A DNA stretch of 64,000 nucleotides from Hyphomicrobiaceae bacterium. GTDB lineage: Bacteria > Pseudomonadota > Alphaproteobacteria > Rhizobiales > Hyphomicrobiaceae. The notes beneath the pieces are model-generated. The model saw nothing but the letters and a program-made list of their open reading frames with translations. It was not told the origin of the DNA and did no database searches. Location: contig CBDCWA010000004.1 of the NCBI GenBank assembly GCA_965223255.1, positions 1,611,514 to 1,675,513 of the forward strand. The letters run 5' to 3'. This document shows positions 2,883-20,766 of the stretch, one piece after another; the first letter of the stretch is position 1; each line of letters begins with the position of its first letter. Both the position numbers and the translations under genes were made by a program.

Positions 2883-3683
2883 ATGAGGCGACGGCAGCAT
2901 GCTCAAGCTATGCGACCATTAGCTGAGGTACCCTTTTTGACTGCCAGTCAAAATGTTCCAAAGGATACGGTCATTGTGAATATTCATTGCGCACTCAATA
3001 AATTGTTGTGCATTGTAGGCGACGCTAAAGATTACTTCATAAGCGGCTCGCTCTCATTCCTACCGTTACTCCCGGACTATCGCGAGCCGATCCATGACGT
3101 AGATGTCGCAATATCGATTGAACTCTTCCAACAGCGTAAAGCTGAATTTGAGGCGGCGGGTCAGCCGCGCGTACTGCGGATATCAGAAATTGCCATAGCG
3201 AAGGAGTCCTTACTCGCCGGTCTTCCGACACCCAAAACAAAGTTCGTGCATGTCGAGACGAACAACGGACTTATCGACATTGCGCAATACCAGCCGAGAA
3301 AGGAAAGTATCGAGCTATTCTTCGGTTGTGGCCTAACACTACGTGTCCCCAACTCAATTCTGGAGCGGGTTCGCTTGCTGGATTGGAAAGGTTTGAACTA
3401 TCGAGCCGGGCCACCCGAACTGGCGCTCTTGCCGAAAATGCTCTGTTACCACGATTGGAAGACGAGAGGGACCAAACTCAATCGCGAACAGAAAAAACAC
3501 CTTGCCGATCTTAAGAATGCATTGTCACTTGTGGACTGGCAGTTCTCTGAAATGTTAATCGCTGCGGCGGAATTTCGATACTTGGGACGCCGCTTACCTA
3601 ATGCGCTAGATCGGCAATTGAACCCATTTCGGCGGCTTCAAGTTGCGAGAATGAAAGAGGAGCTTAAGGGATTGACGCTCTAA
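2883..3683 (+). CDS. hypothetical protein
   Basis: 266-aa ORF with coding-like codon usage; no confident family assignment. Confidence 0.4.
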   Translation: MRRRQHAQAMRPLAEVPFLTASQNVPKDTVIVNIHCALNKLLCIVGDAKDYFISGSLSFLPLLPDYREPIHDVDVAISIELFQQRKAEFEAAGQPRVLRISEIAIAKESLLAGLPTPKTKFVHVETNNGLIDIAQYQPRKESIELFFGCGLTLRVPNSILERVRLLDWKGLNYRAGPPELALLPKMLCYHDWKTRGTKLNREQKKHLADLKNALSLVDWQFSEMLIAAAEFRYLGRRLPNALDRQLNPFRRLQVARMKEELKGLTL

Positions 3684-4079
3684 CAGGCCGCAAGAGCAAA
3701 AGTGTTTGCGCATATTTGAGACCATTGCGCCGGACATAGGTAATCATTTTGGCTTCTCCGTTGAAAACTATGCAGAAAGGCCATGACTAAGAAGCCAAGT
3801 GCTGTGTATTCGAATGTCAATCGCGAACCTTGGAAAAAGGGCAAGTTGATCGTTGCGAAGCGAGCGACCAGACAGTCGCACGAGTAACAGGCACTGCTAT
3901 CTGAGGGACAATTAGTGGGTGTTGAGCCCCCAGACCTTGCCCCGTCTAGCCAGGGAGGTCGTTCAAAAGTTGATGCGACCATTAAAGTGATCACGAATCG
4001 TTTACTTTGAGCTTCTTGCTTCGCTGACCGAAAATACTTTGCACGTGATGCAGAATGGGATAGCGCTAGCCGGAGCGCA

Positions 4080-4787
4080 TTGGTTGATGTGAGGTTGCTT
4101 GTGAGACGCTTACTGCTGGTCGCTCTATCTGTTCTGGCCGTAGCTGGTGTAGTCTATTGGGCGATCGATTCAAATGGACTACAGCGAAGCGCCGTTATAG
4201 AGGATCCGGTCAAGAACTTAGATCGAACGGGGCTGTCAGTCGCAACGTTTGCAGGCGGGTGTTTTTGGTGTGTCGAAGCAGCTTTCGAGGCCGTGCCGGG
4301 CGTTCGCGCGGCAGTATCCGGCTATTCTGGTGGTGTTATTAAGAATCCGACATACAAAATGGTCACGCGCGGCCTGACTAAGCACGCGGAGTCGGTGCAA
4401 GTCTATTACGACCCAACGATAATAACATATAAAGGGTTACTGCAGGTGCTATGGCGCAGCTCTGATCCTACAGACGATCGGGGCCAGTTTTCTGACAGGG
4501 GCAGCCACTACCGGCCAATCATTTTCTATCACGATAAAGAACAGCAGCGCATAGCCATTCGTGCACGTGACGAACTCTCAAAATCTGGACGTTTCAGCAA
4601 ACCGATCAAGGTCGAGATCGTCGCATTCAAAGCATTCTATCCAGCCGAAGCCTATCACCAGGATTATTATCGGAAGAACCCGGGTTACTACCAGATTTAT
4701 AATATAGGGTCAGGCCGGGTCGATTTTCTGACCAAAACATGGGGCGATGATCTCAAGGTCGACTATGCTAAATACCGACCCCAATGA
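4080..4787 (+). CDS. msrA: peptide-methionine (S)-S-oxide reductase MsrA with N-terminal signal/anchor (exported)
   Basis: GGCFWC active-site motif and GYSGG; hydrophobic N-terminus LLLVALSVLAVAGVVYWA before the catalytic domain. Confidence 0.85.
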   Translation: MVDVRLLVRRLLLVALSVLAVAGVVYWAIDSNGLQRSAVIEDPVKNLDRTGLSVATFAGGCFWCVEAAFEAVPGVRAAVSGYSGGVIKNPTYKMVTRGLTKHAESVQVYYDPTIITYKGLLQVLWRSSDPTDDRGQFSDRGSHYRPIIFYHDKEQQRIAIRARDELSKSGRFSKPIKVEIVAFKAFYPAEAYHQDYYRKNPGYYQIYNIGSGRVDFLTKTWGDDLKVDYAKYRPQ

Positions 4788-5147
4788 AATCAGCTAACAG
4801 ATTTCCACCTTTCCCTACGACACGGATTATCAAGGAACGTGGCGCCAATGGATGTGGCGAACAAACGTAACTTGACCAGGTCTCTATTGTTCCGATCGGC
4901 GATCAATCTCGCGCGGCTTTTTTCTTGCACCATTGAAATGCCCCGCCGGCTTTGCGCAGAAATGCGGTCGGACACCGCCCCATATGACAGCGTTTGCCGC
5001 TGTATTGGCTGAACAATTCCGCCTGCAGACCGAGCGCGCTGGCTGCAAGTATATCGTAACGGCCGGTTCTTGGGTGGCACACATATTGCAACAAAATGGT
5101 GGTCTTAACGTAAACCGCTAAGTTAACTGAAAGCTTTGGAGGACGAG

Positions 5148-5618
5148 ATGGGAACATGGTTGATTGATCGCCGCTTGCTGGGGGTTGTCCTTGCCAGCCT
5201 GGTATTGTTGGTCGTGCCTGGTATGAGCGCGCAGGCTAAAAATGAGGCGATGGCCTCTTACCGGGCTTCTATTATGCAGAGTCTGAATGGGCACGTTGCG
5301 GCCATCGGCGCGATTGTCGATGAAAAGGTCGCCTTTAGGCATCACCTCCTTGATCACGCGGTCGCAATCGTTGGCACAAGCCGCGGTTTGCTGGAAATTT
5401 TCCCCGAGAAGGTAAAGAAAAAGACCGCTGAAAAATCCAAGGCGAATGGCAAGAAGTCAAAGTCTTCTCCTTCCTTCGAGGCTCTGGCTACGGAATTCAA
5501 TCTGGCGGCTGCACATTTGGTTCAGGTGATTCCATCGGGGAACAAGGCAGCCATCAAACAACACTTTGCAAAACTGAAAACAGTGTACGGAAAGCTTCAG
5601 GAGCAAACGAAGAAATAG
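5148..5618 (+). CDS. hypothetical exported all-helical protein (four-helix-bundle-like, Lys-rich linker)
   Basis: ATG 5148 with GGAGGA RBS 4 nt upstream; signal peptide ...VVPGMSAQA; no Cys. Confidence 0.5.
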   Translation: MGTWLIDRRLLGVVLASLVLLVVPGMSAQAKNEAMASYRASIMQSLNGHVAAIGAIVDEKVAFRHHLLDHAVAIVGTSRGLLEIFPEKVKKKTAEKSKANGKKSKSSPSFEALATEFNLAAAHLVQVIPSGNKAAIKQHFAKLKTVYGKLQEQTKK

Positions 5619-6305
5619 GTACCCGCCAAGAGCGATGCAAAGTAGTTTCAAAGCCGATCAGGCCAAGGGACCCTACCCTTGGCCTGCCAAAATGTCGGAG
5701 TAGATTTATTGTGGGTAGAGGAATCCGTGCCGGCGAAGCTGGTAAGAACGCGGGCTGCGACAAGCCTGCAATGGAGTTGAAGCAGCTGGACACAAAGCCA
5801 GTCAATTTATCGGATCAGGCGCAGTCGCAGATTAACTTTGTCCACTCTGACAAACAACAAACAAGTGGCACGGCGGACCAATGCGTGCCGTCGCATCAAC
5901 ACAAGCTGAGCATTTAATTCCCATGGTCAACGAGCGCTTTCGAAGGGCGCTTCCATTGTGTGGCGCAGGTGTCCGATTGCTTGATTGACCGGAGCCCCAT
6001 GCGTTCCATGGGTGTGATTCAACAGCTGACAACTAACATAGATAACATAGACGAATTTTTGCCTATTCGGCTCAAGTATCCGACATGCATGGGTTTTGCC
6101 AATTTGTCAGATGTAGGCCGCCCAACCTACGCATTGATAAATAATGTGAAAGTGCGGAGGTGGCCTGATATTTCCAAGTGCACCCAGACAAGATGGCAGC
6201 ATAGCTGCCACATCTGGCCGGTGTTGCTTGAGGCCGGAGTGGCTATTGTCTTGAATTTCCGGAAAAACCGAAGTTTTCCATTGCGAATCAATCAGTTGTA
6301 GCTTC

Positions 6306-6321
6306 TGGCACAGTCCTTGCA
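6306..6321 (+). promoter_or_regulatory. sigma54 (RpoN) -24/-12 promoter, exact consensus TGGCAC-N5-TTGCA
   Basis: TGGCACAGTCCTTGCA about 178 nt upstream of the Gly-Met-X protein gene; an NtrC-type activator is encoded 8 kb away. Confidence 0.55.
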
Positions 6322-6498
6322 AGCGGTTAATAGAACGTGATGCATTGGGAACGTTTTGTGAGGCCAGGACGCACAGCTGGGGGGTCTCATGTTCTGTAGT
6401 CAGTCAAGAGGCATCGGATTCGCCGCGGTTGTGAAGACGTGCCGCCAACCGAAGGAGCAGGATTAGCAATGGTAACGTTTCAAAAGGAGTTTGGTCGA

Positions 6499-7425
6499 AT
6501 GCGTGGCTACATGGCCGCGGCCGCGGTTATTGCAGCGGGCGTAATAACGGGTATGAGCAGCTCGGAAAGTACCGCGCAGGGCATGCGTGGCATGTACGGA
6601 ATGCCGGGTATGTACGGCATGGGCGGCATGCGCGGCATGCCTGGTATGGGCGGTATGTACGGCATGGGCGGCATGCGCGGCATGTACGGCATGGGTGGTA
6701 TGCGCGGCATGTACGGCATGGGCGGCGTGCGCGGCATGTACGGCATGGGTGGTATGCGAGGTCCAGCCGGCAGGTGGACTTGGGTGTGGGTGCCAGCTCC
6801 TACAAGCAGAATGAGAGGCATGTACGGTATGTACGGAATGCCGGGCATGTACGGCATGGGTGGCATGCGTGGTATGTACGGCATGTACGGAATGCCGGGT
6901 ATGTACGGCATGGGTGGCATGCGCGGTATGTACGGCATGGGCGGCATGCGCGGTATGTACGGTATGCGGGGCATGCCGGGCATGTACGGCATGGGCGGCA
7001 TGCGCGGTATGTACGGCATGGGCGGCATGCGCGGTATGTACGGTATGCGGGGCATGCCGGGCATGTATGGCATGTATGGAATGCCGGGCATGTACGGCAT
7101 GGGCGGCATGCGCGGTATGTATGGCATGGGCGGTATGCGCGGTATGTACGGTATGCGTGGCATGCCCGGTATGGGTGGCATGTACGGCATGTACGGAATG
7201 CCGGGCTTGTACGGCATGGGCGGCATGCGCGGCATGCGCGGTATGTACGGCATGGGCGGCATGGGCGGTATGTACGGCATGCGCGGAATGCCAGGTATGG
7301 GCGGCATGTATGGCATGCGCGGCATGCCGGGTATGGGCGGTATGCGTGGCATGCCCGGAACGCGAAGCTGGGCTCCTCCGCAACCACCGCAGACTCCGCC
7401 ACCGGCGCAGAAGAAGCCGAGCTAA
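6499..7425 (+). CDS. secreted methionine-rich Gly-Met-X triplet-repeat protein (about 80 GMX triplets, about 30% Met)
   Basis: Start at ATG 6499 (AAAGGAG RBS, spacing 9). Signal peptide MRGYMAAAAVIAAGVITGMSSSESTAQG. Then GM[YRPG] triplets in two blocks, about 20 and about 60, split by GPAGRWTWVWVPAPTSRMR. C-terminal Pro-rich tail PPQPPQTPPPAQKKPS. Codon third positions GC-rich in this frame only. Confidence 0.75.
   Translation: MRGYMAAAAVIAAGVITGMSSSESTAQGMRGMYGMPGMYGMGGMRGMPGMGGMYGMGGMRGMYGMGGMRGMYGMGGVRGMYGMGGMRGPAGRWTWVWVPAPTSRMRGMYGMYGMPGMYGMGGMRGMYGMYGMPGMYGMGGMRGMYGMGGMRGMYGMRGMPGMYGMGGMRGMYGMGGMRGMYGMRGMPGMYGMYGMPGMYGMGGMRGMYGMGGMRGMYGMRGMPGMGGMYGMYGMPGLYGMGGMRGMRGMYGMGGMGGMYGMRGMPGMGGMYGMRGMPGMGGMRGMPGTRSWAPPQPPQTPPPAQKKPS
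6583..7360. repeat. tandem nucleotide repeat (9-nt GGCATGNNN units with 81-nt higher-order period) underlying the GMX protein
   Basis: Repeating GGCATGTACGGCATGGGCGGCATGCGC. For example, the 44-nt string at 6943-6986 recurs exactly at 7024-7067. All six frames are open across it, which gives many overlapping artefactual ORFs. Confidence 0.9.
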
Positions 7426-7629
7426 GAGGGCATGGATTTTATGTGATGACAATGTGGGTGCCGGTGGGCAAAGACAGTGCACGCGCACAATGCCCCACCG
7501 GCCTCCGCAAAAACAACCCATCGCATCGTTTCGCTCGTCAACTAACAGCAGTCAAAATCACTTATACCGTGAACCGTTGATTTGATTTTGGGTGCGGTGA
7601 GATTTTCAGAATCTGTGCGGGGGAGGTGA

Positions 7630-8220
7630 ATGTCAGACAGTACTGAGAGCTACAGCGAGGCTGAAGCGTCGTCTCCAATAGAAGAGGCGCGAGCGAAGCC
7701 TATGAAACGAGAAGCATTCAACCAAATTGCTCCGTTTCTTGTCGCTGTCGCAGTCACCGCAGGCATTATAATGGTCTCCGTGGGGGTATCGAAAAAGCAG
7801 CCGGAGCTCGAGCCAGGTCCAAGCAAAGACATCGGCCGACCTGCGGCTCCGCTGTCAAGCGCGAAAGTGCCCGCCGCAAAAGGGCCGGCCGCCACTGCAC
7901 CAAAAGATCCGCAAGTGAGAACGACACCACCAAAGGAGACGGCTTCCCGGCCCTCGAAAGTAGAACCAGTAAAATCCGAATCATCATCGACTGTTAAGAG
8001 TCTTTTTGTCGGCGGTGCAGCACCGAGTAGACGTCCCTCTGATGCTCCGTCGATCAAAGACCTTGCAAAGGACGCCGATTGGTATGCGCGTGCACTTACC
8101 GGCCTCGCAAAGCCCTACCCGCGCAGCTTCAAGTTTTTGGAAGACCAAGGTGCTTGGTATACGCCCTTCAACAAGCGCGGAATGACTGGCCCTTACGACA
8201 TTAGGAGTTGGCATGAATAA
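7630..8220 (+). CDS. single-pass membrane protein with Pro/Ala-rich linker and a conserved about 50-aa C-terminal module
   Basis: GGGGGAGG RBS; acidic N-terminus, TM IAPFLVAVAVTAGIIMVSVGV, low-complexity PAAPLSSAKVPAAKGPAATAPKDP, then C-terminal WYARALTGLAKPYPRSFKFLEDQGAWYTPFNKRGMTGPYDIRSWHE. Confidence 0.6.
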   Translation: MSDSTESYSEAEASSPIEEARAKPMKREAFNQIAPFLVAVAVTAGIIMVSVGVSKKQPELEPGPSKDIGRPAAPLSSAKVPAAKGPAATAPKDPQVRTTPPKETASRPSKVEPVKSESSSTVKSLFVGGAAPSRRPSDAPSIKDLAKDADWYARALTGLAKPYPRSFKFLEDQGAWYTPFNKRGMTGPYDIRSWHE

Positions 8221-9046
8221 GAACACTGGGATGCAACAAATAGCACAGCCATTCACAAATCATGCGTGGCGACCAATGGGCGTCACTGCAATCAAATCCT
8301 TGATTCCAGAAGCGTCGCTCATAGCATCTCTATTGTGGGCAAGTCTGTTCATGATCGGCGTCGCCGACGCGCGCGCTGAAGGCGATATTGAGCAGGGCAA
8401 GAGAGTATTCAGGCTCTGCATCGCCTGCCATAAGATTGGGCCAGGGGCGAGAAACCTGAGCGGGCCAAAACTCAATGGCATTGTTGGCCGAAAGGCCGGC
8501 ACCGTTGAGGGGTTCAAGTATTCTCCCGCCAACAAGAAGGCTGGCGAACAGGGATGGATTTGGACCGAACAGGCATTGGATAAATATTTGGAGAACCCGC
8601 GCAAGGCGATGCCTGGCAATCGGATGGTGTTCATCGGGATAAAAAGCGCGAAGGATAGAAAGAATCTCATCGCTTATCTCAAGTCATTCAAGTCAAGTCA
8701 GCACCGCGGGACGACCAAGACCATGGACGCCGCATCAGCACCGGTCCAGCCGGGGGCTAAAACAAAGCGTTCGGCGAAGGCCGAGCGCGGGGGCAAATCC
8801 CAACCCAAACGGACGACGTCAGTCATATGGGTCGGTGGATCAACCCCGTCCAAACGGCCACCCGCCGCACCGCGCCTGAGAAGCTTCGAGAAGACGCCTG
8901 CCTGGTACCGCCGTGCTCTGGCAGGCCTGTCGAAGCCCTATCCGCCGAGCTTCCGGTTCCTCGAGGATCAAGGTGCTTGGTACACACCATTCAATAGCTC
9001 GGGCATGACAAGCCCTTACGATCTGCGCGCTTGGCATAAAAGTTAG
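8213..9046 (+). CDS. class I (c2-like) cytochrome c with C-terminal extension carrying the same about 50-aa module
   Basis: AGGAG RBS; signal peptide ...MIGVADA; CIACH heme site, GPKLNGIVGRKAG, Met ligand region NRMVFIGIK; basic/Pro-rich linker; C-terminal WYRRALAGLSKPYPPSFRFLEDQGAWYTPFNSSGMTSPYDLRAWHKS. Confidence 0.8.
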   Translation: MNKNTGMQQIAQPFTNHAWRPMGVTAIKSLIPEASLIASLLWASLFMIGVADARAEGDIEQGKRVFRLCIACHKIGPGARNLSGPKLNGIVGRKAGTVEGFKYSPANKKAGEQGWIWTEQALDKYLENPRKAMPGNRMVFIGIKSAKDRKNLIAYLKSFKSSQHRGTTKTMDAASAPVQPGAKTKRSAKAERGGKSQPKRTTSVIWVGGSTPSKRPPAAPRLRSFEKTPAWYRRALAGLSKPYPPSFRFLEDQGAWYTPFNSSGMTSPYDLRAWHKS

Positions 9047-9116
9047 CTTCGCGCAGTGGGTGCCGACGGAGCCCCGGCGCGGTGTGAGAAACAGCATAAG
9101 AATATGAGATAAGAAG

Positions 9117-9977
9117 ATGATGCACAGAACGCTAACCTTGGCAGTGAGTTGCCTGTCCGTCGTTCTTGTCACAGGCAGCATTTATTCGTTTGCATGGTCA
9201 GAGAGTGGCACACGCAAGGGCGATTATGCTGCTGCGGTATGGAACAAACTTCATTTCTCACCAGCCATTGATCGCGCAAGAGATGAGCAGTGCCTTTCAT
9301 GCCATAGCGAGATCCTCAAGCAAAAAGTGCGCACCAAGTCTCCCGCCGGGATAAAGGCGAAAGATTCAATTGCTTGGTATCAGGCAATGGATACGTACAC
9401 AGGAGATCAAGAAACGTTTCATTGGCGGCATATTTCTTCGCCTTTTGCAAAGGCTGTCATGAAGCTGTCGTGCAATTTCTGTCACCGTGGACACGATCCG
9501 CGTGAAGAGGCGCCAGGCTCGAGTGCAACCGCACCGCAAATTGGCAAAGCGACTGGGTTTGCCTTGCGCAAGACGGTTGATCCTTCGCAAACGTGCCTCA
9601 AGTGCCATGGCAGCTTTCCCTATAAGATCATGCAATTGCCGGGACCTTGGCACGAAGTGCGACCGTTAATGGAGTCACCGGAAATAAAAAACGGCTGCCT
9701 AGGCGCTTGTCACAAGGTAGCATTCCGCACCAATCGCCATAACGTGACCTATCTCAATCGCGACAAGATAGAGGAATTGTCCAAGGACAACTCGGACACG
9801 TGCTTTGGCTGTCATGGCGGAAGGGCATGGTACCGGAATTCCTACCCTTATCCGCGAAATCCCTGGCCCGGCATGGACAAAGAGATTCCAAAGTGGGCCA
9901 AGGATAGGCCCACCCAATCCGAAGCGCGCTTTCGCATTGGCGACAAACAAGGCGCCGCGGCTGGCAAGACGAAATAG
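9117..9977 (+). CDS. multiheme c-type cytochrome (four CXXCH plus one CX3CH)
   Basis: N-terminal hydrophobic anchor/signal; CLSCH, CNFCH, CLKCH, CFGCH plus CLGACH. Confidence 0.75.
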   Translation: MMHRTLTLAVSCLSVVLVTGSIYSFAWSESGTRKGDYAAAVWNKLHFSPAIDRARDEQCLSCHSEILKQKVRTKSPAGIKAKDSIAWYQAMDTYTGDQETFHWRHISSPFAKAVMKLSCNFCHRGHDPREEAPGSSATAPQIGKATGFALRKTVDPSQTCLKCHGSFPYKIMQLPGPWHEVRPLMESPEIKNGCLGACHKVAFRTNRHNVTYLNRDKIEELSKDNSDTCFGCHGGRAWYRNSYPYPRNPWPGMDKEIPKWAKDRPTQSEARFRIGDKQGAAAGKTK

Positions 9978-10012
9978 CGGGCACGGCAGCAAAGTGTTGG
10001 AGGCAAAACCAT

Positions 10013-12547: not shown

Positions 12548-13233
12548 TGATTGGGGACACAGATATGGCAAAGGCGCCGATTGACAAGAAGAAGATAAAG
12601 AACGCGGTAAAACGCAAGAAACAAGACGTTTACAAGCCAGTGGTTCCCCACCAACAGCTCGGGTTTATCCATAACAATGTCGATTGTATCGGGTGCAGGG
12701 CTTGCGAGATTGCTTGTAAGGATAAGAATGGGTTAGCACCCGGACCAAGATTCCGCAGAGTACAATATATCGAGGGTGGCACATATCCCGAGGTGTTTGC
12801 ATACAAGGTAAATATGTCGTGCAATCACTGCGCTGAACCTGCCTGCCTTCCCGCCTGTCCCACCGGCGCGATCTACAAACGGAAAAAGGATGGTATTGTC
12901 GACATTGACTCGACGTTGTGCATCGGATGCCGGCGCTGCGAGGCCACATGCCCCTACGGCGCACCGCAATACATCCCTGATCAAAATATCGTTTCTAAGT
13001 GTAATATGTGCGTGGATGAGATTGATGCCGGTCGTAAGCCCTATTGCGTGATGGCCTGCATGATGCGCGTGCTCGATATTGGTCCGATAGACAAATTGCG
13101 TGATGGGACTTGGGACACTAAAGCCAAGGCAAAGCAGGAGAAAGTTGTACGTCAGGTGCAGAATATGGCGGATCCGGAGCTAACCAATCCATCGATCGTA
13201 TTCGTCGCGCATAGCAAGGGCAAAGTGAAATAG
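12544..13233 (+). CDS. DmsB-like 4x[4Fe-4S] electron-transfer subunit
   Basis: Four Cys clusters: CIGCRACEIAC, CNHCAEPACLPACP, CIGCRRCEATCP, CNMCVDEIDAGRKPYCVMAC. Probable true start ATG 12565 (MAKAPID, GGGGA RBS). Confidence 0.9.
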   Translation: MMIGDTDMAKAPIDKKKIKNAVKRKKQDVYKPVVPHQQLGFIHNNVDCIGCRACEIACKDKNGLAPGPRFRRVQYIEGGTYPEVFAYKVNMSCNHCAEPACLPACPTGAIYKRKKDGIVDIDSTLCIGCRRCEATCPYGAPQYIPDQNIVSKCNMCVDEIDAGRKPYCVMACMMRVLDIGPIDKLRDGTWDTKAKAKQEKVVRQVQNMADPELTNPSIVFVAHSKGKVK

Positions 13234-13302
13234 GCGGTATGCTGCCGTGTTCGTGAACCACCCTGCGCCTTTTCCAATGCGCACTCACCTAGAGCGTTTC
13301 AA

Positions 13303-14130
13303 GTGCACAAACCTATCAGAGGTGCCCACCATGCTGGCCCTAGCCAGCATGCAGGGCGGGAGAATTCATTCGTGCAAGACCATGGACAAAGCGAAGCTGA
13401 ACTTCTTGCTGCTTTCAGAGAGTCGGTCGATGATGACCTGAAGTTGATTGCAGCACTGCACGATCGCGAGATCGATGCACCTGCGATCGCGCAGCTCAAA
13501 CAACTGAGGTTTCCCAGTGGCCTCGGTTTTAATCTGTCAAAGTCGGCAGCGAAACAAGCCCAACGACAAATGATCGATGCTCTTGCGGATCTGCCGGATG
13601 TACCCGATCAAGCGCTTCTCGATGAACTCGCCGTCGATTTTGCAGCAATCTATCTGACCTATCGCTACCGGGCCGCGCCAACGGAATCCGTGTGGCTCGA
13701 TAAGGACCATCTCGAGCGCCAGCAACCTATGTTTCAGACCCGAGCCGCCTACCGCCGAAGAGGTCTGAAGGTCGTCAACTGGAACGTGAGGTCTGAAGAT
13801 CACCTGGTCACTCAACTGCTTTTTGTGGCGCATTTGATTGGCGAATGTCGCGACGAAGTGGCGCTAGCGGATGCTGCAGCGTTCCTTGACCAGCACTTGC
13901 TCCGTTGGATTGACATCTTCGCCTTGAGTGTAGCGCAACGTTGCAGCGCTCGTTTTTATAGCGCCCTCGGCTCGCTGACAGCTGCCTATTTGGACGAGCT
14001 GCGCGATGTTCTCGCAGAGATCCTGGATGAACCGCGACCCCAAATCGTAACAGCCGATCAGATTCTGCAGCCACCCGACGAAGCCGAGCAGCACACTCCA
14101 ATCGCACCGGCCGTTGGTCCAAGCTGGTGA
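13303..14130 (+). CDS. TorD/DmsD-family redox-enzyme maturation chaperone
   Basis: Position immediately after A/B subunits; ...EDHLVTQLLFVAHLI... resembles the TorD family signature; start uncertain (alternative GTG 13372 with GGGAG RBS). Confidence 0.6.
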   Translation: MHKPIRGAHHAGPSQHAGRENSFVQDHGQSEAELLAAFRESVDDDLKLIAALHDREIDAPAIAQLKQLRFPSGLGFNLSKSAAKQAQRQMIDALADLPDVPDQALLDELAVDFAAIYLTYRYRAAPTESVWLDKDHLERQQPMFQTRAAYRRRGLKVVNWNVRSEDHLVTQLLFVAHLIGECRDEVALADAAAFLDQHLLRWIDIFALSVAQRCSARFYSALGSLTAAYLDELRDVLAEILDEPRPQIVTADQILQPPDEAEQHTPIAPAVGPSW

Positions 14131-14151
14131 TCAACCAGCGAATGGGTGCCG

Positions 14152-15534
14152 TTAGTCGCTGCGTTCACTAACGCTAAGTCCATGCTTCTTGAGCAACCTG
14201 TACGTGTTGCGCTCGCTTATTCCCAATACTTCAGCAATCCGCGAGCGATGTCCGCCGTATTTTACGACCAATCTAGCCAGGTAATCTCGCCGGATTTCCT
14301 CTAACGTTGGCTCGTGATCAAACATGAACGCCGCCGTTTCACAACGAGACGACTGAGCGCTGGGTGGAGCACTCAACCCCAGGTGCCGTGCTCGGATAGT
14401 AACGTCGTCGCCAGATACCAGGATTGCCCGCTCTATGACGTTTCTAAGCTCGCGAACATTGCCTGGCCATGAGTATGCGGTAAGCACCTCAATGGCATCC
14501 TTGCTCAATATCTTCTGCCGGGCGCGCTGAAAAGATCTGGTATCCAAAAACAGCTCTGACAGCACCGCGATGTCCTCGCGCCGCTGTCGCAGCGGTGGTA
14601 CACTGATCACAACTGTAGCCAAGCGATAGTAAAGGTCAGATCGAAATCGTCCCTCGTCGATGGATGCTATAAGGTCACGATTAGTTGCAGCGACGATGCG
14701 CGCGTCACTGATTATCTTCTGGGTGCCGCCGACGCGCCGAAATTCTCCGGTCTCAAGCACGCGCAGTAGTTTTGCCTGCATCGACGCAGGCAATTCGCCG
14801 ATTTCGTCAAGGAACAGTGTTCCGCCCTCGGCAATTTCGATCAAGCCCTGCTTGCGCCGGTCCGCTCCTGTAAATGCCCCTTTCTCGTGACCAAACAACT
14901 CCGATTCGAACAGCGTCTCTTGTAATGTCGTTGCATCCACAGGCACAAAGTTGGAATCCGCACGATCGCTCAGCTGGTGAATGGCTTTTGCTACAAGCTC
15001 CTTGCCGACGCCACTTTCGCCCTCGATTAGAACCGTTGAATCGCTTGGTGCGACCAACTCAATAAGATGTGCCATTTCCTCAAAAGCATTGCTCCGTCCA
15101 ACCATAATCTTCTTGATGTTGGGATTTAGTTGTTCTCGGCAATACTGGTAGCTGCGCCTCAAGGAGCTGTTTTCCAATGCTCGGCCAATAGCAAACTCCA
15201 GTTCGGACGGATTGATCGGTTTCGTCAGATAGTCAACCGCACCAGACCGGATAGCTTCGACTGCATGCCGAATGCTTCCGTACGCCGTCAGAACGAGCAC
15301 AGGGCATTGAGCTGAAAGTTCCGGCAAACACTGGATACCATCGATGTCGGGAAGTCTGATATCGAGGAGAGCAAGAGCGGGATCATGAGTCTCCAGCGTC
15401 ACCTTGGCTTCCTCCCATGAATAGACGCCAGTTGGCTGATAGCCCATCGCCCGCAGTTGTTCGATCAGAAAATGATTAAGTGCCTTGTCGTCCTCTATGA
15501 CAAGAAGATGCTTACCTTTCTTTCTTTGCGTCAT
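14152..15534 (-). CDS. sigma54-dependent NtrC-family response regulator (receiver-AAA+-HTH)
   Basis: Receiver domain with D...LLDIRLPDIDG; Walker A GESGVGKE; GAFTGA sigma54-contact motif (ESELFGHEKGAFTGA); C-terminal Fis-type HTH. Confidence 0.9.
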   Translation of the reverse strand: MTQRKKGKHLLVIEDDKALNHFLIEQLRAMGYQPTGVYSWEEAKVTLETHDPALALLDIRLPDIDGIQCLPELSAQCPVLVLTAYGSIRHAVEAIRSGAVDYLTKPINPSELEFAIGRALENSSLRRSYQYCREQLNPNIKKIMVGRSNAFEEMAHLIELVAPSDSTVLIEGESGVGKELVAKAIHQLSDRADSNFVPVDATTLQETLFESELFGHEKGAFTGADRRKQGLIEIAEGGTLFLDEIGELPASMQAKLLRVLETGEFRRVGGTQKIISDARIVAATNRDLIASIDEGRFRSDLYYRLATVVISVPPLRQRREDIAVLSELFLDTRSFQRARQKILSKDAIEVLTAYSWPGNVRELRNVIERAILVSGDDVTIRARHLGLSAPPSAQSSRCETAAFMFDHEPTLEEIRRDYLARLVVKYGGHRSRIAEVLGISERNTYRLLKKHGLSVSERSD

Positions 15535-17435
15535 GATAGTTCTTTCGCTACTTCTGCAGAAGGCAATGTGACAACGAATCTAGTCCCCTCACCAACCACG
15601 CTCGTCACATCTAACCTGCCGCCGCTTCGTTTGACTATTTCTTGGCATATTGAAAGCCCAAGCCCTGTTCCGTGAACGCCGTCGGCACGTTTACTCCAGA
15701 AGGGATCGAATATTTTGGCGAGATCGCTCTTCTTGATCCCCACGCCAGTGTCCTCAAAGACCAGCTCGACCACATCTTCGCAGACTGAGCCCGAAACCAG
15801 CAGGCGCCCGCCATCAGGCATGGCATGCAGAGCGTTCTGTGCGATGTTTAGCACCATCATTCTCATCTCGCTGTCGGAGCCGATTGATCTGAGTTCACTC
15901 TCAAGATCCATCGATATGTCGACCTCTGACTTCAGTGCCTCAGCGTTGAGTAGGGAGAGAACCTCGAACACGACGTTGTTGAGATTTACAAGTTCGCGGT
16001 GCTCGCTTGCTGGTGCGCTAAGCTTCAAAAGACGCGACGTAACTTCTATGCAGCGCGTTATCTGATCTTCGATAATGTCAAGATACTTGCTTGCCTTCTC
16101 GTCCCGACCCTCCCGTAGAGCTCTTTTCGCTGAGTCGAAGCCCAAAAGTATGGACGCAAGAGGGTTGTGAATCTCGTGTGCAACACCCGCGGCCAGGAAG
16201 CCAATTTCCGACAGCCGCTGCTCTTGCGATAGCCGCACGTCCTTGCTCAGGTCTCTAATGACCTCCACAACGAATTTTTTTTGCGTGTCGTCAATAGTGA
16301 TTTCAAGCAGCGCTGCTGAGACCTCGACCGGGATTTCTTTCTCATCGGCGCTCACATGAGAATGCCGACAAGTCAAGACCTGCCCTCCTTTCTGCAGTTC
16401 ATGCAGCGGACAGCTGACCAAGCTCGCTGGGCAAGGCGATTCACGAGAATGGCTGGACCAATAGCAGGGTCGCTGTACCACCTCAGACCGCGCGCGATGC
16501 TGTTGTTCGCAGAATGCGCGGTTAGCCTTGACGACCTGATAGTTCATGTCGATCACGCGCACTCCATCGGGCATTATGTCGATCAGGTCCTGCAAATACC
16601 GCTCTCTGGTCTCTATATTGTGTACAGCTTGAGCGATACGAGCGGACATGTCGTTAAAGGCACGTCCAAGCCGCCCAATCTCATCGGAGCTTTTTAGCGG
16701 CACACGGTGACCCAGTTGGCCCAGCGACATCTTATCCGCTGCCTCGGTCAGTCCTTTCACAGGTGCGAGCACGAACCAGTTAAGCAGAAATCCGATGCCA
16801 CCAATGGTAGTCAGCACGACTGCTATTCCGGCACCACTCAGCATCAATACTGCAAACATTGTGTCGCGTCTGATGTTCGTTGCGTCATAGTCAACGACGA
16901 GAATTCCGTTTATTGGGTGGGTATCAATCTGGCCATGGCATTTAGTGCATGGGCCGCGGTTGCGGACCGGGTTTATGCTGCGCAGAATGTCACCAGCAAC
17001 GGCGTCCGCAACGAAGGCCGAACGGGGCCCGTGCCCTTTTATTGTTGCCTTGCAGTCTGGGCACAACTCACCTGCTTCGAGATCAAAACGTCGGCCAAGC
17101 TGTATCTTGTTGCTCGCAAATCTGACTTCACCATTCGGCGCAAGAATCATGACACCGGAAATATTCTCCTGTTCACCCAATCGTTCGACCATTTTCCTCA
17201 GGCCAACGATGTCACGATTGAGCATCGCATTCTCAAGCCCCAGCTGCAGCAGGCGGTTGACCTCCGTGGATGCTGCGCTGCGTTCCCTCAGGATTTGATC
17301 ACGATAGGAGAGAATGACCAACGCAAGGAAACAGATCGATGCAAACGTTAGGCTTGCGACAAGGATCAGGGTTATTTTCCGCCTTAGGCTTGCAGCAGAC
17401 CACCTGGCTAGGTCATTCCATAACTGTCCCATCAT
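15531..17435 (-). CDS. sensor histidine kinase; periplasmic domain with CXXC and CXXCH motifs, then HAMP and a Cys-rich PAS-like region
   Basis: Two TM helices flank an about 140-aa periplasmic domain with CPDCKATIKGH and GPCTKCHGQ. Cytoplasmic part has C-x11-C-x6-C-x16-C, H-box AHEIHNPLA and an HATPase_c domain with G-boxes DTGVGI, GTGLGL. Stop overlaps the RR start. Confidence 0.85.
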   Translation of the reverse strand: MMGQLWNDLARWSAASLRRKITLILVASLTFASICFLALVILSYRDQILRERSAASTEVNRLLQLGLENAMLNRDIVGLRKMVERLGEQENISGVMILAPNGEVRFASNKIQLGRRFDLEAGELCPDCKATIKGHGPRSAFVADAVAGDILRSINPVRNRGPCTKCHGQIDTHPINGILVVDYDATNIRRDTMFAVLMLSGAGIAVVLTTIGGIGFLLNWFVLAPVKGLTEAADKMSLGQLGHRVPLKSSDEIGRLGRAFNDMSARIAQAVHNIETRERYLQDLIDIMPDGVRVIDMNYQVVKANRAFCEQQHRARSEVVQRPCYWSSHSRESPCPASLVSCPLHELQKGGQVLTCRHSHVSADEKEIPVEVSAALLEITIDDTQKKFVVEVIRDLSKDVRLSQEQRLSEIGFLAAGVAHEIHNPLASILLGFDSAKRALREGRDEKASKYLDIIEDQITRCIEVTSRLLKLSAPASEHRELVNLNNVVFEVLSLLNAEALKSEVDISMDLESELRSIGSDSEMRMMVLNIAQNALHAMPDGGRLLVSGSVCEDVVELVFEDTGVGIKKSDLAKIFDPFWSKRADGVHGTGLGLSICQEIVKRSGGRLDVTSVVGEGTRFVVTLPSAEVAKELS

Positions 17436-17962
17436 TGCGATGCCAGCCGAATGATAAAGCTCTCAGTAGGAACAAGATCCGTATCAATCCGGCAAAGCCT
17501 TTCGGTTTGGTCAGCAAGATCATCCTGGAAGACGGTGATCGGAACGACGACCGGCACCAGCCATTCCCGCGCAGCAAATGCCTTAAGCCAGTCCCGCCGC
17601 TCCTCAGAGGCCTTTGTCGCGAGAATGGATTCCGCGTTATGCACAACGAGCCCGCCACGATTCGATTTCTTTTCGATGTACGCGGTCAGAGCCGATAGTG
17701 GAACCTGGCCGGCCTCCCATCCCAGGGGGAGAAGTTTTTCCGCCCGAAAGTCTATGAAGGTGAAGTCAAGAGCATTCGTCATGGCGCGTATTAACTCTGG
17801 CCGGTACTCGGGAAAAACGACGAAGAAACCTCCACGTCCAGCAGCCTGGGCAATCATCTCGGCAACCGGCCTTATCCAAGGTAATAGAGGCTCTCGAGAC
17901 TGCATCATCGCAACACTTGAAACAGTTTGTCGTAATGCTGCGTCTTCAGGCAGATCCGACAT
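17432..17962 (-). CDS. hypothetical protein co-transcribed with the two-component system
   Basis: Overlaps kinase start by 4 nt; start may be an internal Met at 17908/17905 abutting the upstream stop. Confidence 0.5.
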   Translation of the reverse strand: MSDLPEDAALRQTVSSVAMMQSREPLLPWIRPVAEMIAQAAGRGGFFVVFPEYRPELIRAMTNALDFTFIDFRAEKLLPLGWEAGQVPLSALTAYIEKKSNRGGLVVHNAESILATKASEERRDWLKAFAAREWLVPVVVPITVFQDDLADQTERLCRIDTDLVPTESFIIRLASQ

Positions 17963-19083
17963 CGCAACTCGGCCGATCCCTGGCTCTCAGGCATCAAAAA
18001 CACAGTTCCGCACGAGCGGCATTGCGCAGAATCAAGTTGAATGGATGTCGGGTCGCCGCGCTGCCAGGACTTGACGGCGACTGCATCAGTATCACAAACG
18101 TCAGCGCACAGCCTGCAGCCGGTGCAATGTGACGGAGCGATCTTGTAGGCGGGCCGGCCCGCGTGATCAGTCACAAGTGTGATTGCATGAGTTGGGCATA
18201 TGCGAATACAGGCATTGCACCCGACGCAGTTCGCAGTATCAATTTCGGGAAGATAGGGGTTCAAAGGCATCCCGCTTTCGCCGGCTGGAAGTCGCTCCGC
18301 TGCCGGAACCTGACGTTGTGTCTTCAAGTTGGAATCCACGTCCACCAACCTGCTAACGGCCACAAAAAAACCGCGCCGGGATGCACGCATCGTTGTTGAA
18401 CGTATAGTATGCCATTCGCCAGGTGTGTACTCAGTGATGCTGAATTCATCCATGCCTCGGTCCGCCCAGAGACGTTGGAGGTTGATAACCGCTTGATCAA
18501 ACTGATGACTCAAACCACGCTCGCAGCTCAGGCATGCTTCGCGGCTCACGATCAGCTGTCGCAAACCTTGTGCATATAGTTGAGCCAGTTCATCTATTCC
18601 GATCGAATTCAGGCAAGGTCGTACACCAGGTCCACCTTCTTCGACGGCGACGGAACAGGCAAACAGTCCAATCTTGTCATCGTCATAAGATCTCGCAGCG
18701 TTGGCCAGTGGCAATTCAATCGCAGTCTGCGGGCAGACCGGCACACAGATGCCACATCCATCGCAAGCTTGTTCGTCAAATCCGAGAGCATCCTCCTCTA
18801 AGACCCACGCGGCACGTGGACAAGCATCAACGCAGTCTTGGCAACTAGCGTTGGACACGATCGCATGAACGCAACGATCAGCATCAATAACTGGAAGGTC
18901 TGCGGGCAGATGCGACAGCTTATCGCTTCGCGGAAGGGCAAAGCTGCGTCCTGGCAACCCAGACTCAGTCGTGTCCGAACGATTCTTCGACATCACGTTA
19001 TCGCTTCCGGCGCCCGGTTGCCCTCGCTCGCGCTCGCTGCGCGCACCTACTCGCGTGGCAGCCGACCCGGCGGGCACGGGCAC
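17905..19083 (-). CDS. polyferredoxin-like multi-[4Fe-4S] protein
   Basis: CDGCGICVPVCP, CVGCNACIRICP, CTGCRLCADVCD (CX2CX2CX3C[PD]) plus extra CxxC pairs; N-terminal 40 aa low-complexity so start uncertain. Confidence 0.75.
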   Translation of the reverse strand: MPVPAGSAATRVGARSERERGQPGAGSDNVMSKNRSDTTESGLPGRSFALPRSDKLSHLPADLPVIDADRCVHAIVSNASCQDCVDACPRAAWVLEEDALGFDEQACDGCGICVPVCPQTAIELPLANAARSYDDDKIGLFACSVAVEEGGPGVRPCLNSIGIDELAQLYAQGLRQLIVSREACLSCERGLSHQFDQAVINLQRLWADRGMDEFSITEYTPGEWHTIRSTTMRASRRGFFVAVSRLVDVDSNLKTQRQVPAAERLPAGESGMPLNPYLPEIDTANCVGCNACIRICPTHAITLVTDHAGRPAYKIAPSHCTGCRLCADVCDTDAVAVKSWQRGDPTSIQLDSAQCRSCGTVFLMPESQGSAELRCRICLKTQHYDKLFQVLR

Positions 19084-19148
19084 TTCCGACGATTATGAAA
19101 GACAGCTATTCCAACCCGAGAAACAGCCGCCACGACACGCTGTCGTGA

Positions 19149-19164
19149 TGCAACTCCTGTGCCA
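19149..19164 (-). promoter_or_regulatory. sigma54 -24/-12 promoter, exact consensus, reading into the polyferredoxin-kinase-regulator operon
   Basis: Plus strand GCAACTCCTGTGCCA = minus strand TGGCACAGGAGTTGCA; about 55 nt upstream of ORF start 19083. Confidence 0.55.
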
Positions 19165-20049
19165 TCACCAATACTCTTTGGCGTCCTGTGTCGACGGCTC
19201 GGCAGATAGCCTTTCAGCGCCGTGACTTGGGCAGGAGGAGCACTGAGGCTGACAAATTGTCATGGGTCGGAGGCGCTGAATATGCCAGTCTGTCAGGTCT
19301 GCGCCAAGCATGTTTGATGCTAGTCTCGGATCGACCATATCGAGTGTCTGGAGTCTCTCCGAAAGAGGGGTCCAATAGATCGGTCTTAGCTATGCCCGAC
19401 AACTGGAGGGCAAATATTTGGGGGCAGACCAACCATCGGATATGCGACGACATTTTGCCGAGTTAGCGAAAGCTTCGCAGCAAGAACGCACGAGCTTCTG
19501 TGCTGCCCACTGAGAGCGGACATCACCCGGCGTGGGGCTGACATCGCGGTGGGGGCAAACGAGAAAGTCACACTGAAGCATTGGCTTACAGCCATGGATG
19601 GATGAGCTGGACCGATCGGTACAATTGTAGCTAATGTCCCACTTGGCGTTCAGGACCAGTTCCATCACCAGCAAGTGCCGGCAGTTAGTCTCGATTTGAT
19701 GAGAATTCCTCGTCAATATCGATGAGCCGGCGCCAGAGCATACAAGCGCGGTGCACGAACACGACGCCAGATCAGACACTTGCACTTCCTTTCCATACGG
19801 CCCCGGCACGCTTCTTTTGATCGAGTCGGGAATCAAATGCCATACGCATCGTAGGCTTTGCTCATGGAGCGCGGGCAGTCATGCCAAGTATTTGGCAAGA
19901 TTTGACGCACATCAAAAACTACGCGCAAGACTTGCATGGAACTTGCATGGAAAGAGCAAATTGCCTGCAGAAGTGGAGAGAGCCGTTGGTCCATGATGGT
20001 GATGTGCAGGCCCGTCGCAAAGGGACGGCTCATTTTAGGAGGAAGTAAG

Positions 20050-20346
20050 ATGGCTGCAATGTTCGCGCGAATCCGTACGCCTGTCGCGGGGAAGCACGTC
20101 GACGGTTATAAGTTCGCTCAGGAGCGGGCGAAGGCGATGAAGGATGTTTTGGGAATTGACCAAGAGGTCTATGTGCGCCTGGGTGGTCCGGTCGGCCAGG
20201 TGATTGCGGTCTCGAAGCACAACAGCATCGCCGAGATCGAGGAAGTGAAGAAGAAAGTGATTAAGGCAGACGGCGAGGGAAAGTTACCGACAGCGCCGGC
20301 GGGTACCTTCTCTGAGATCGTCGATCACGTCTGGCTGCAGGAATAA
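20050..20346 (+). CDS. hypothetical small protein (98 aa)
   Basis: ATG 20050 with GGAGGA RBS; the upstream part of the 19936 ORF lacks coding character. Confidence 0.45.
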   Translation: MAAMFARIRTPVAGKHVDGYKFAQERAKAMKDVLGIDQEVYVRLGGPVGQVIAVSKHNSIAEIEEVKKKVIKADGEGKLPTAPAGTFSEIVDHVWLQE

Positions 20347-20766
20347 GGCGGATCCGCAGTGGTCTGCGCGGCCCTACGTGGAATTCAAGAGGCATGTTAG
20401 GAGTGATCCCACCGTTATGGAGAGCGGGATCGGCGGTTGATATGCAGTGTGATCATCGGCTGAAGTGACCAATACTTTGGGGCTAGAAGCTGGTCGAAGC
20501 ACACGCGCACCGCGCAATACGCAAATGGCACAAACGTGCTATTCATAAAAACTGCCTTCGACATAAGACTTGTGCCCATGTGATCCGATTTGCGGCAGCG
20601 CTGCTTCCAGCGAAGGCTCCCGCAGTTCCCGGGGGCTCCGACATCACCTAACGCTGATCCGATAAGCCGTTCAGGGCAAGCAACGACATCTTGCTTGGCA
20701 GCGCCGTGACAGGATCACCTGAGACATAGCGCCTGGCTAGAGGGGTAAGCCGAGGGGTCGTTACGC

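Follow-up and report, generated by a model that had tools for sequence, protein, structure and literature searches.

A conserved gene cluster joining a secreted methionine-repeat protein to a DmsAB-like molybdoenzyme and a five-haem cytochrome c, possibly for periplasmic methionine redox cycling

In Azospira suillum, the methionine-rich periplasmic protein MrpX is encoded in an operon with the molybdoenzyme YedY1, which regenerates MrpX after its oxidation by hypochlorite (PMC4436054). Enzymes of the dimethyl sulfoxide (DMSO) reductase family act on methionine sulfoxide as well: DorA, MtsZ and BisC are described as reducing it, DorA also in protein-bound form, and DmsABC is placed in a hypochlorite-inducible defence of Haemophilus (PMC7402097, PMC11024254) and, more generally, implicated in the defence against sulfoxide damage and hypochlorite (PMC11024254, PMC12096835). 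Here we analyse a stretch of 64,000 nt from a Hyphomicrobiaceae bacterium (contig CBDCWA010000004.1, positions 1,611,514 to 1,675,513; hereafter the window), in which a gene for a secreted protein of Gly-Met-x repeats (the GM gene and GM protein) lies upstream of genes for a five-haem cytochrome c and for a DmsA-like molybdoenzyme with its DmsB-like iron-sulfur partner. In the literature we found no description of this cluster, of its repeat, or of the pairing of a Met-rich protein with a DmsA-type molybdoenzyme; the system is real and conserved and, to all appearance, undescribed, and it seems to be an analogue of the MrpX-MsrP scavenger/reductase system built from non-homologous parts.

Genes called in the window were translated, and the encoded proteins were scanned with Pfam and NCBIfam profiles. 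The locus was compared with 80 genome loci whose DmsA-like enzymes are 72-80% identical, in which neighbours were counted by tblastn with the window proteins, and with a close relative of the window locus, L081, taken from ENA analysis ERZ25072999. Because the flavour of the repeat differs, GMY/GMR in the window and GMS/GMG elsewhere, tblastn with the window GM protein detected only 6 orthologues in the 80 loci; the gene was located by a composition scan for plus-strand open reading frames (ORFs) rich in GM dipeptides. The results showed that a GM-repeat ORF lies directly upstream of the genes for the five-haem cytochrome, DmsA and DmsB in 66 of the 80 loci (63 by a strict criterion and 3 short versions), between the cytochrome gene and a gene for a small protein that we call the module. 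Six loci are uninformative, with less than 650 nt of upstream sequence, and the GM gene is present in 38-40 of the 47 loci whose upstream sequence reaches 1.5 kb or more. The order module, GM, cytochrome, DmsA, DmsB, TorD recurs in three proteobacterial classes. The other genes are distributed over the 80 loci as follows, the counts for kinase, regulator and module being constrained by the length of the available flanks:

five-haem cytochrome, directly upstream of DmsA: 78 of 80 loci
DmsB: 78 of 80 loci
TorD: 70 of 80 loci
polyferredoxin, after TorD: about 55 of 80 loci
sensor kinase: 45 of 80 loci (flank-limited)
NtrC-type regulator: 43 of 80 loci (flank-limited)
module: 44 of 80 loci (flank-limited)
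homologues of a 176-aa protein, at the same position: 6 loci and L081

Module protein, five-haem cytochrome and polyferredoxin belong to the core of the cluster; a methionine sulfoxide reductase A (MsrA) and a cytochrome c2 that are encoded in the window do not. DmsA-like homologues 72-100% identical are spread over Alpha-, Beta- and Gammaproteobacteria, and at least 554 species-level genomes hold relatives of the clade. Its carriers include sulfur-oxidising symbionts, wastewater denitrifiers, glycogen accumulators and Hyphomicrobiales; Zoogloea oryzae NBRC 102407 (L075), Castellaniella defragrans and Jhaorihella thermophila are carriers available in culture. Databases label the enzymes of this clade 'anaerobic DMSO reductase'.

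For the reverse direction, phmmer with a GM protein proved unusable: owing to composition correction it returned few true orthologues, and most matches were GM-like stretches of unrelated periplasmic proteins. We therefore scanned metagenome contigs with a degenerate DNA pattern that encodes only GMSGMGGMSGMSGMGGM, which yielded at least 120 loci (L082-L201). Among the matches listed, 77 of 104 informative loci (74%) have a correctly oriented module gene upstream, a five-haem cytochrome gene downstream, or both; the cytochrome, usually accompanied by DmsA, follows in 39 of the 49 downstream-informative loci, the module precedes in 48 of the 67 upstream-informative loci, and the other 27 of the 104 are standalone secreted GM paralogues. 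Some of these paralogues adjoin a GW-repeat protein or a thioredoxin (Trx)-like+NHL protein, both of which also occur in the main cluster. The forward and reverse scans agree, so the pairing is specific both ways. Presence of the GM gene beside the reductase in related genomes, which a preliminary description of this DNA had set beforehand as a condition for treating the locus as one system, is strongly conserved.

Two metagenome loci (L082:535-2838 and L102:1922-4672) show a different arrangement, in which the GM gene is followed by genes for a small protein with a signal for twin-arginine translocation (Tat), an NrfC-like, Tat-exported Fe-S protein and a membrane protein resembling NrfD, in place of the DmsAB cluster. 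A metagenome-assembled genome (MAG) labelled Desulfobulbus sp. (L018) holds a complete cluster of the Azoarcus/Zoogloea type on a 10-kb contig, which is probably a binning error and not a deltaproteobacterial occurrence.

In the window, the cluster and its surroundings comprise the following features:

4080-4787, plus strand: exported (signal-anchored) MsrA (PF01625, 1.7e-58; TIGR00401; GCFWC active site)
5075-5090, plus strand: sigma54 promoter TGGCACACATATTGCA before the cytochrome c'-like gene (perfect motif match)
5136-5618, plus strand: secreted cytochrome c'-like four-helix protein without Cys (PF01322, 6.2e-11)
6100-6110, plus strand: candidate activator-binding site CAATTTGTCAG (exact 11-mer, chosen post hoc, weak)
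6306-6321, plus strand: sigma54 promoter TGGCACAGTCCTTGCA before the Met-repeat gene and reductase operon (perfect motif match)
6469-7425, plus strand: secreted hyper-Met (G-M-x)n protein (composition, repeat)
7630-8220, plus strand: membrane-tethered protein with a transmembrane helix, a Pro/Ala/Lys-rich linker and the ~70-aa module
8213-9046, plus strand: cytochrome c2/c550 domain, Pro/Ala/Lys linker and ~70-aa module (PF00034, NF043008)
9117-9977, plus strand: periplasmic five-haem cytochrome c (four CXXCH and one CX3CH)
10013-12547, plus strand: Tat-exported DmsA/YnfE-like molybdopterin catalytic subunit (TIGR02166, 615 bits)
12544-13233, plus strand: DmsB-like Fe-S subunit with four Fe-S motifs (TIGR02951, 197 bits)
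13303-14130, plus strand: TorD/DmsD-family maturation chaperone (PF02613, 5.8e-19; NF003442)
14152-15534, minus strand: NtrC-type sigma54-dependent response regulator (PF00072, PF00158, AAA lid)
15531-17435, minus strand: sensor histidine kinase with periplasmic CPDC and CTKCH (haem c), HAMP, Cys-rich PAS and kinase core
17432-17962, minus strand: 176-aa protein without family match, between polyferredoxin and kinase
17905-19083, minus strand: cytoplasmic polyferredoxin, NapF-like (several Fer4 families, weak napF match)
19149-19164, minus strand: sigma54 promoter TGGCACAGGAGTTGCA for the operon of polyferredoxin, 176-aa protein, kinase and regulator (perfect motif match)

ORF translation and the profile scans recovered every gene of the preliminary description in its place, and profile matches and motifs bore out the convergent NtrC-type system whose kinase carries CXXCH/CXXC, with regulator and kinase on the minus strand. 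To these we add the cytochrome c'-like protein (5136-5618) and, in the regulator operon, the polyferredoxin and the 176-aa protein; the minus-strand genes form a single operon of polyferredoxin, 176-aa protein, histidine kinase and NtrC-type activator.

The ORF of the GM protein opens at 6439, and an ATG at 6469 that follows AAGGAG is its probable start; it ends at 7425. The protein contains 83 Met in 341 residues (~24%). Behind its signal peptide come (G-M-x)n repeats, which WVWVP interrupts, and a W-x-P-P motif is C-terminal; its DNA consists of a 27-nt unit present 26 times. Three long ORFs overlap the gene in antisense or an alternative frame (6463-7521 and 6507-7352, minus strand; 6774-7580, plus strand) with translations such as PMPxMP... 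and HGRHVRH...; they are by-products of the repeat, not genes. Typical orthologues read GMSGMGGMSGM... and contain 20-31% Met in the composition scan of the genome loci. Nearly constant across loci are a Sec signal, aromatic interruptions (YFxIxPxGxIFFYP, WVWxP) and a C-terminal tail that is W-x-P-P, W-R or Lys-rich, while the mature length runs from about 26 residues (L029) to more than 400. A size that varies while signal peptide, GM composition and usually W-x-P-P are kept fits a supply of thioethers in bulk and not a fold. Met stands at every third residue over most of the protein, with MxxM/MxM motifs present. The window protein also matches Pfam Collagen (PF01391) with 75 bits against a cutoff of 27.2 (L059 orthologue, 26.4 bits), a match due to the periodicity of Gly; position X is always Met and position Y mostly Ser or Gly.

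The repeat itself may have kept the gene out of sight. The contigs of about 22 genome loci stop within it; contigs that start or end inside the GM gene include L025, L027, L030, L031, L036, L038, L041, L044, L053, L055, L057, L063 and L068, among others, and many of the metagenome loci L082-L201 do likewise. The GM repeat breaks short-read assemblies, so that MAG annotations systematically lose the gene or show it truncated or under-represented, which partly accounts for its having been overlooked. In some genomes a second GM gene lies close to the cluster (L058:3670-4656, L059:16129-16851); the one in L058 joins GM repeats to the GW-repeat family's C-terminal domain, and a sigma54 motif lies upstream. 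In phmmer searches, GM-like stretches were also found fused to monohaem cytochromes c/c5, NapC-like multihaem cytochromes, DsrE/DsrF-like and OmpA-like proteins and CusB-type Cu(I)/Ag(I) adaptors, and they look like a reusable periplasmic appendage.

The catalytic subunit scored 615 bits against TIGR02166 (DmsA/YnfE), below the cutoff of 777.7, yet this was its best-scoring family, and the NCBIfam 'exception' models for YnfE (selenate) and DmsA scored nearly equally (456 and 447 bits). Its Tat signal LTRRRFVQLSAASAAAGAAG spans residues 14-33 and includes RRRFVQL, of which R16 and R17 are invariant; invariance was judged over 28 homologues throughout. The best PDB matches are of the DorA/MtsZ type (1eu1, 1.2e-71; 7l5i, 3.1e-69). 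In the phmmer alignment to 1eu1, Ser208 corresponds to the molybdenum ligand Ser147 of DorA and Tyr172 to its catalytic Tyr114, both invariant, and Gly174 takes the place of DorA Trp116. The Tyr equivalent to Tyr172 is needed for catalysis in S- and N-oxide reductases (PMC8166771).

The N-terminal Fe-S (FS0) motif, C60-x3-C64-x3-H68...C108, is invariant, His included; the stretch at 10187-10216 (DmsA residues 59-68) reads C-A-H-N-C-G-S-R-H. E. coli DmsA presumably has a four-Cys FS0, C-x3-C-x3-C...C, whose third Cys would be the His here. The enzyme departs from the four-Cys FS0 of the DmsA/YnfE subfamily in having His68 at the third ligand position. The DmsB-like subunit scored 197 bits against the TIGR02951 cutoff of 214.1, with all four Cys motifs present. 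Three other assignments of the catalytic subunit were considered and rejected: a polysulfide, thiosulfate or tetrathionate reductase, with far lower scores for PhsA/TtrA-type models and a molybdenum ligand that aligns as Ser (Psr/Phs/Ttr-type enzymes use Cys); an arsenate reductase, ArrA reaching only 76 bits; and a type II molybdoenzyme, with partial matches only.

A membrane anchor of the DmsC/NrfD type was not found among the conserved neighbour clusters of the window and the 80 loci, TorD following directly after DmsB, and the Pfam and NCBIfam scans detected no YedY/MsrP or YedZ/MsrQ domain in the proteins of the cluster. The five-haem cytochrome of the window does not match Cytochrom_NNT, and its L039 orthologue reaches 27.9 bits with no stretch passing alone; the N-termini of these cytochromes resemble cleavable signal peptides. 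The fourth haem motif of the window protein (9693-9710, residues ~193-198) is CLGACH, a CX3CH, where orthologues have CXXCH; L081 has CLGACH as well, so it is not a sequencing error.

The preliminary description had noticed a novel C-terminal module shared by the membrane-tethered protein and the cytochrome c2, and the two ~70-aa modules are indeed 63% identical. The module family has no match in Pfam or NCBIfam. In most genomes, it is encoded as a free secreted 'hypothetical protein' of ~100 aa (91 matches), and its AlphaFold2 model is mostly coil (predicted local distance difference test, pLDDT, 63), which fits a peptide that folds upon a partner. Only the window and L081 have the membrane tether and the fusion with cytochrome c2. 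They are therefore lineage-specific, not parts of the system as had been proposed, and the conserved redox partner is the five-haem cytochrome. Of the earlier suggestion that c-type cytochromes feed the enzyme in place of MsrQ/DmsC, the absence of a DmsC or MsrQ gene from the cluster stands, and the cytochrome c2 gives way to the five-haem protein.

Promoter motifs, both here and in 12 further genomes, support the sigma54 control put forward in the preliminary description. We searched the window for perfect TGGCAC-N5-TTGCW motifs and found exactly three in 64 kb, with ~0.06 expected by our own estimate; all three are intergenic and correctly oriented, one before the gene of the cytochrome c'-like protein, one before the operon of Met protein and reductase and one before that of the regulator, and no perfect motif lies upstream of msrA. 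A search of 1.3 Mb of related loci with the strict motif gave 18 matches against ~2.5 expected, 12 of which lie 60-250 nt upstream of the operon-heading module gene, in 12 other genomes. A periplasmic CXXCH is present in 38 of 46 kinase orthologues. Because promoter motifs and kinase CXXCH recur, a sigma54 regulon under a haem-c sensor is, as read from sequence, a predicted conserved property of the cluster. The 11-mer CAATTTGTCAG has two exact copies in the window, at 6100-6110 (plus strand) and 19249-19259 (minus strand), 90-200 nt upstream of sigma54 promoters, the latter ~90 nt upstream of the regulator-operon promoter; it could be an activator site, although it was picked post hoc and is weak. 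An Rfam scan of window positions 3500-20500 gave no match and hence no molybdenum cofactor riboswitch.

The msrA gene had been counted as a member of the system. It lies within 10 kb of the cluster in only 5-6 of 82 loci and is not core, although this is more than the ~0.3-0.7 that would be expected by our estimate from one or two msrA genes per genome. The window MsrA faces the periplasm, as judged by its N-terminal hydrophobic anchor, and all linked copies are exported. They occur in L081, L016 (a lipoprotein), L054 and L072 (both MsrA-MsrB fusions), with a partial match in L008, and represent 4-5 independent lineages; in L016, L054 and L072 they adjoin the regulator gene. The L081 cluster is rearranged, with TorD and msrA beyond the regulator, and the exported MsrA is still adjacent.

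Other neighbours are more local. The cytochrome c'-like protein, which has no Cys and so cannot bind haem c, is encoded between msrA and the GM gene and at the same position in L081 (L081:4698-5195); tblastn did not find it in the 80 other loci, and it belongs to this lineage only. In 15 loci, a periplasmic Trx-like+NHL protein follows the polyferredoxin (for example L044:7210-8817, minus strand). Its carriers are mainly Gammaproteobacteria of the Thiodiazotropha and Sedimenticola types, with further copies in L083, directly upstream of a GM gene, and in L126. A secreted repeat protein (GW..ER..DGS.LLYP) with a conserved C-terminal domain often precedes the module gene (L016:5619-6695, L012:5411-6256, L059:5985-6992); it matches no family, is preceded in some loci by a sigma54 motif of its own and also stands beside standalone GM genes (L152, L177). 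On the 3′ side of the cluster, window positions 20831-25144 encode a porin of the OmpW family, a 229-aa C-terminal piece of a luciferase-like monooxygenase that is probably a pseudogene, a dioxygenase of the TauD family and a second, full-length luciferase-like monooxygenase. These genes resemble a set for the use of organosulfonates and show no evident tie to the reductase cluster.

Our preferred reading, which we hold tentatively and at a little short of an even chance, is that the cluster is a conserved sigma54-controlled periplasmic module in which methionine is oxidised and then re-reduced by DmsAB. The analysis establishes which genes are present, that their pairing is conserved both ways, the promoter motifs and the active-site residues; what the enzyme reduces, in which direction it works, what the kinase senses and what the module does are what we infer. 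The Sec-exported (G-M-x)n protein, probably disordered, would display dozens to more than 100 thioether side chains, which hypohalous acids, chloramines, peroxynitrite or peroxide would oxidise chemically to methionine sulfoxide. A soluble, Tat-exported S-oxide reductase of the DmsAB type would re-reduce these sulfoxides with electrons from its dedicated five-haem cytochrome c, so that the oxidant would, on balance, serve as an electron sink. The module protein may fold onto the complex as an adaptor or accessory subunit, joined in this genome to a membrane tether and to cytochrome c2; maturation of the enzyme would fall to TorD and to the polyferredoxin, the latter probably a maturation factor; and the haem-c sensor kinase with its NtrC-type regulator would activate the three sigma54 units. 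Of the preliminary interpretation as a whole, this keeps the conserved pairing, sigma54, the module and the lack of DmsC/MsrQ, and it drops MsrA and cytochrome c2 from the core. A stronger version, in which the cluster is a widespread, self-contained device for 'protein-bound sulfoxide respiration', with a secreted thioether polymer trapping oxidants and DmsAB, five-haem cytochrome and small subunit respiring the sulfoxides, is possible but in our view doubtful.

A methionine cycle, which follows the only characterised precedent, MrpX/YedY1, is the most economical reading. By analogy, the Ser/Tyr active site, as in S-oxide reductases, and the placing of GM gene, enzyme and a private electron donor in one sigma54 unit would favour it; the linkage of exported MsrA/MsrAB is recurrent, and 15 loci have the Trx-like+NHL protein in the operon. 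Methionine sulfoxide reductase activity of the enzyme is a well-motivated hypothesis. Several points weigh on the other side. Eight of the 80 loci lack the GM protein: two have a solitary DmsA (L017, L034), two are rearranged (L049, L067), one retains a remnant (L065), and three combine a divergent module with a CDHNC variant of the Fe-S motif (L074, L077, L078). The active-site residues do not fix the substrate, since the DmsA family is promiscuous, with selenate among the substrates of YnfE/F and chlorate among those of DMSO reductases. The cytochrome c2 fusion points towards a high-potential donor, and such a donor would be ill suited to a sulfoxide couple near +160 mV, the approximate value for DMSO/dimethyl sulfide (DMS). 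The reaction of Met with H2O2 is slow, so the relevant oxidant is uncertain. CusB-type Cu(I)/Ag(I) adaptor proteins contain GM-like stretches too, and if a linked MsrA/B already repairs methionine sulfoxide, the molybdenum enzyme could have another task.

The DmsAB-like enzyme might accordingly act on a small molecule, respiring or detoxifying DMSO, free methionine sulfoxide or another S- or N-oxide, or an oxyanion (chlorate, bromate, iodate, selenate), with the GM protein as a co-expressed shield that generic MsrA/B/P repairs; we regard this as unlikely, though a serious contender. Its soluble AB enzyme, multihaem cytochrome and sigma54 regulator with kinase resemble PcrABC with PcrSR (pcrABCDPSR is named in PMC4436054), the YnfE and DmsA scores are near equal, the cytochrome c2 fusion suggests a high-potential acceptor, and several loci have a linked exported MsrA/MsrAB that could do the repair. 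In the literature, too, the enzyme is taken for a DMSO reductase or an alternative sink for electrons, and a second-hand citation in PMC11237559 ties dmsAB to DMS metabolism in Hyphomicrobium. However, in the only Met-peptide system characterised so far, it is the operon partner that recycles the peptide (PMC4436054), and here the immediate operon neighbour of the enzyme in most genomes is the GM gene, whereas msrA is so seldom linked. Moreover, neither a chlorite dismutase nor another product-handling gene is conserved in the neighbourhood of the loci, and an active site of Ser and Tyr is of the S-oxide reductase type.

A second use of so many Met residues would be as a periplasmic sponge for Cu(I), Ag(I) or another soft metal through M-x-x-M, protecting or serving the Fe-S/Mo enzyme or a metal response. 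Met at every third residue makes a continuous MxxM, phmmer finds GM-like stretches in CusB-type efflux adaptors, and Met-rich domains are described as recruiting Cu(I) in CueO (PMC11494321); but no cop, cus, pco or multicopper-oxidase genes are among the conserved neighbours of the 80 loci, the His/Asp co-ligands typical of CopA/PcoB repeats are mostly absent, the regulators are a haem-c sensor and a sigma54 activator and not of the CusRS/CopRS type, and there is no chemical reason for a copper buffer beside a molybdenum S-oxide reductase, all of which makes a metal sponge improbable. We judge it still less probable that the protein is a structural scaffold, such as a collagen- or gel-like matrix or a sulfur-globule coat, whose Met content is incidental to redox cycling. 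The Collagen match on G-x-y periodicity, the recurrent aromatic, beta-like interruptions and companion GW-repeat protein, the many sulfur-storing Gammaproteobacteria among the carriers and the fusion of GM stretches to DsrE-like proteins would suit a scaffold, but the cluster is equally present in Competibacter, Zoogloea, Azoarcus and Hyphomicrobiales, which to our knowledge do not store sulfur, versions of ~26 residues (L029) are too short, and the third position of the repeat is mostly taken by Ser or Gly, a choice that disfavours a collagen helix. That the genes are adjacent by coincidence, with no joint function, would accommodate the standalone paralogues among the metagenome matches listed, but it is contradicted by the conservation data, that is, by the same gene order over three proteobacterial classes, by the 74% found in the reverse scan among the matches listed and by the shared sigma54 promoter before the unit, and it is hardly credible.

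The cluster may bear on an expression pattern seen in animal symbioses. Among the most strongly expressed genes and proteins of lucinid symbionts is, alongside aerobic oxidases, an 'anaerobic DMSO reductase' of the dmsAB type (PMC6872982, PMC8090883), and transcripts of dmsB and dmsD are higher in the upwelling season (PMC12172469). Six Thiodiazotropha loci (L012, L033, L040, L052, L063, L070) carry the cluster; if the expressed lucinid-symbiont genes should prove to be the same ones, the oxidant-sink model would explain the high 'DMSO reductase' expression in oxygen-exposed symbionts. The constant pairing with a protein that is one-quarter Met provides a concrete and cheaply testable hypothesis for the function of the enzyme. 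If correct, it would represent a second, non-homologous solution to periplasmic methionine redox cycling, add two new protein families (the GM-repeat protein and the ~100-aa module) and a His-ligated FS0 variant of DmsA, and prompt another look at calls of 'DMSO respiration' in metagenomes and symbiont transcriptomes.

Compared with known systems, the cluster shares MxxM with Met-rich Cu(I)-binding proteins (CopA, PcoA, CusF, the CusB N-terminus) and does not share their copper/silver gene neighbourhood in the 80 loci. It is like PcrABCD/PcrPSR in its soluble AB enzyme, periplasmic multihaem cytochrome, TorD-like chaperone and kinase with sigma54-dependent regulator, but PcrA is a type II enzyme (NarG-like, Asp-ligand), and the Met-rich peptide of the Pcr organism lies in a separate operon with YedY. 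The Dor/Tor type (DorA, TorA, MtsZ/TorZ, BisC), which gave the best PDB matches, also consists of soluble periplasmic enzymes served by a five-haem cytochrome; these are single subunits without Fe-S domain or B subunit, in contrast to the FS0-like domain and DmsB partner here, their cytochrome (DorC/TorC) is a membrane-anchored quinol dehydrogenase of the NapC type, and we know of no Met-rich partner. The closest sequence family is DmsABC/YnfEFGH, the membrane-bound S-/N-oxide and selenate reductases of Enterobacteria and Haemophilus, with which the cluster has in common the Tat signal, N-terminal Fe-S domain, Ser ligand, a DmsB-like subunit with four Cys motifs and DmsD/TorD chaperone. It differs in its sub-cutoff score (777.7), His as third FS0 ligand and Gly for the active-site Trp, in having a periplasmic cytochrome c instead of the quinol-oxidising DmsC anchor, and in its dedicated Met-rich protein and small novel protein. 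In logic, the nearest likeness is to MrpX/YedY1-YedZ1 (MsrPQ), where a Met-rich periplasmic protein with a signal peptide likewise shares one operon with a Tat-exported molybdenum reductase, and where sacrificial Met oxidation, enzymatic regeneration and a dedicated stress-type regulator are combined as we propose here from the genes. The parts are different ones: the molybdenum enzyme is the sulfite-oxidase-fold YedY there and a bis(molybdopterin guanine dinucleotide) AB enzyme of the DMSO reductase family (PF00384/PF01568) here; the donor is the haem-b membrane protein YedZ/MsrQ there and, probably, a soluble five-haem cytochrome c here; MrpX is small, with 20% Met and 44% charged residues, whereas the GM protein is a long Gly/Ser/Met repeat of up to more than 400 residues with 20-30% Met; and control by SigF, a sigma factor of the extracytoplasmic function (ECF) type, with its anti-sigma factor NrsF is replaced, as the promoter motifs suggest, by sigma54 and a haem-c kinase.

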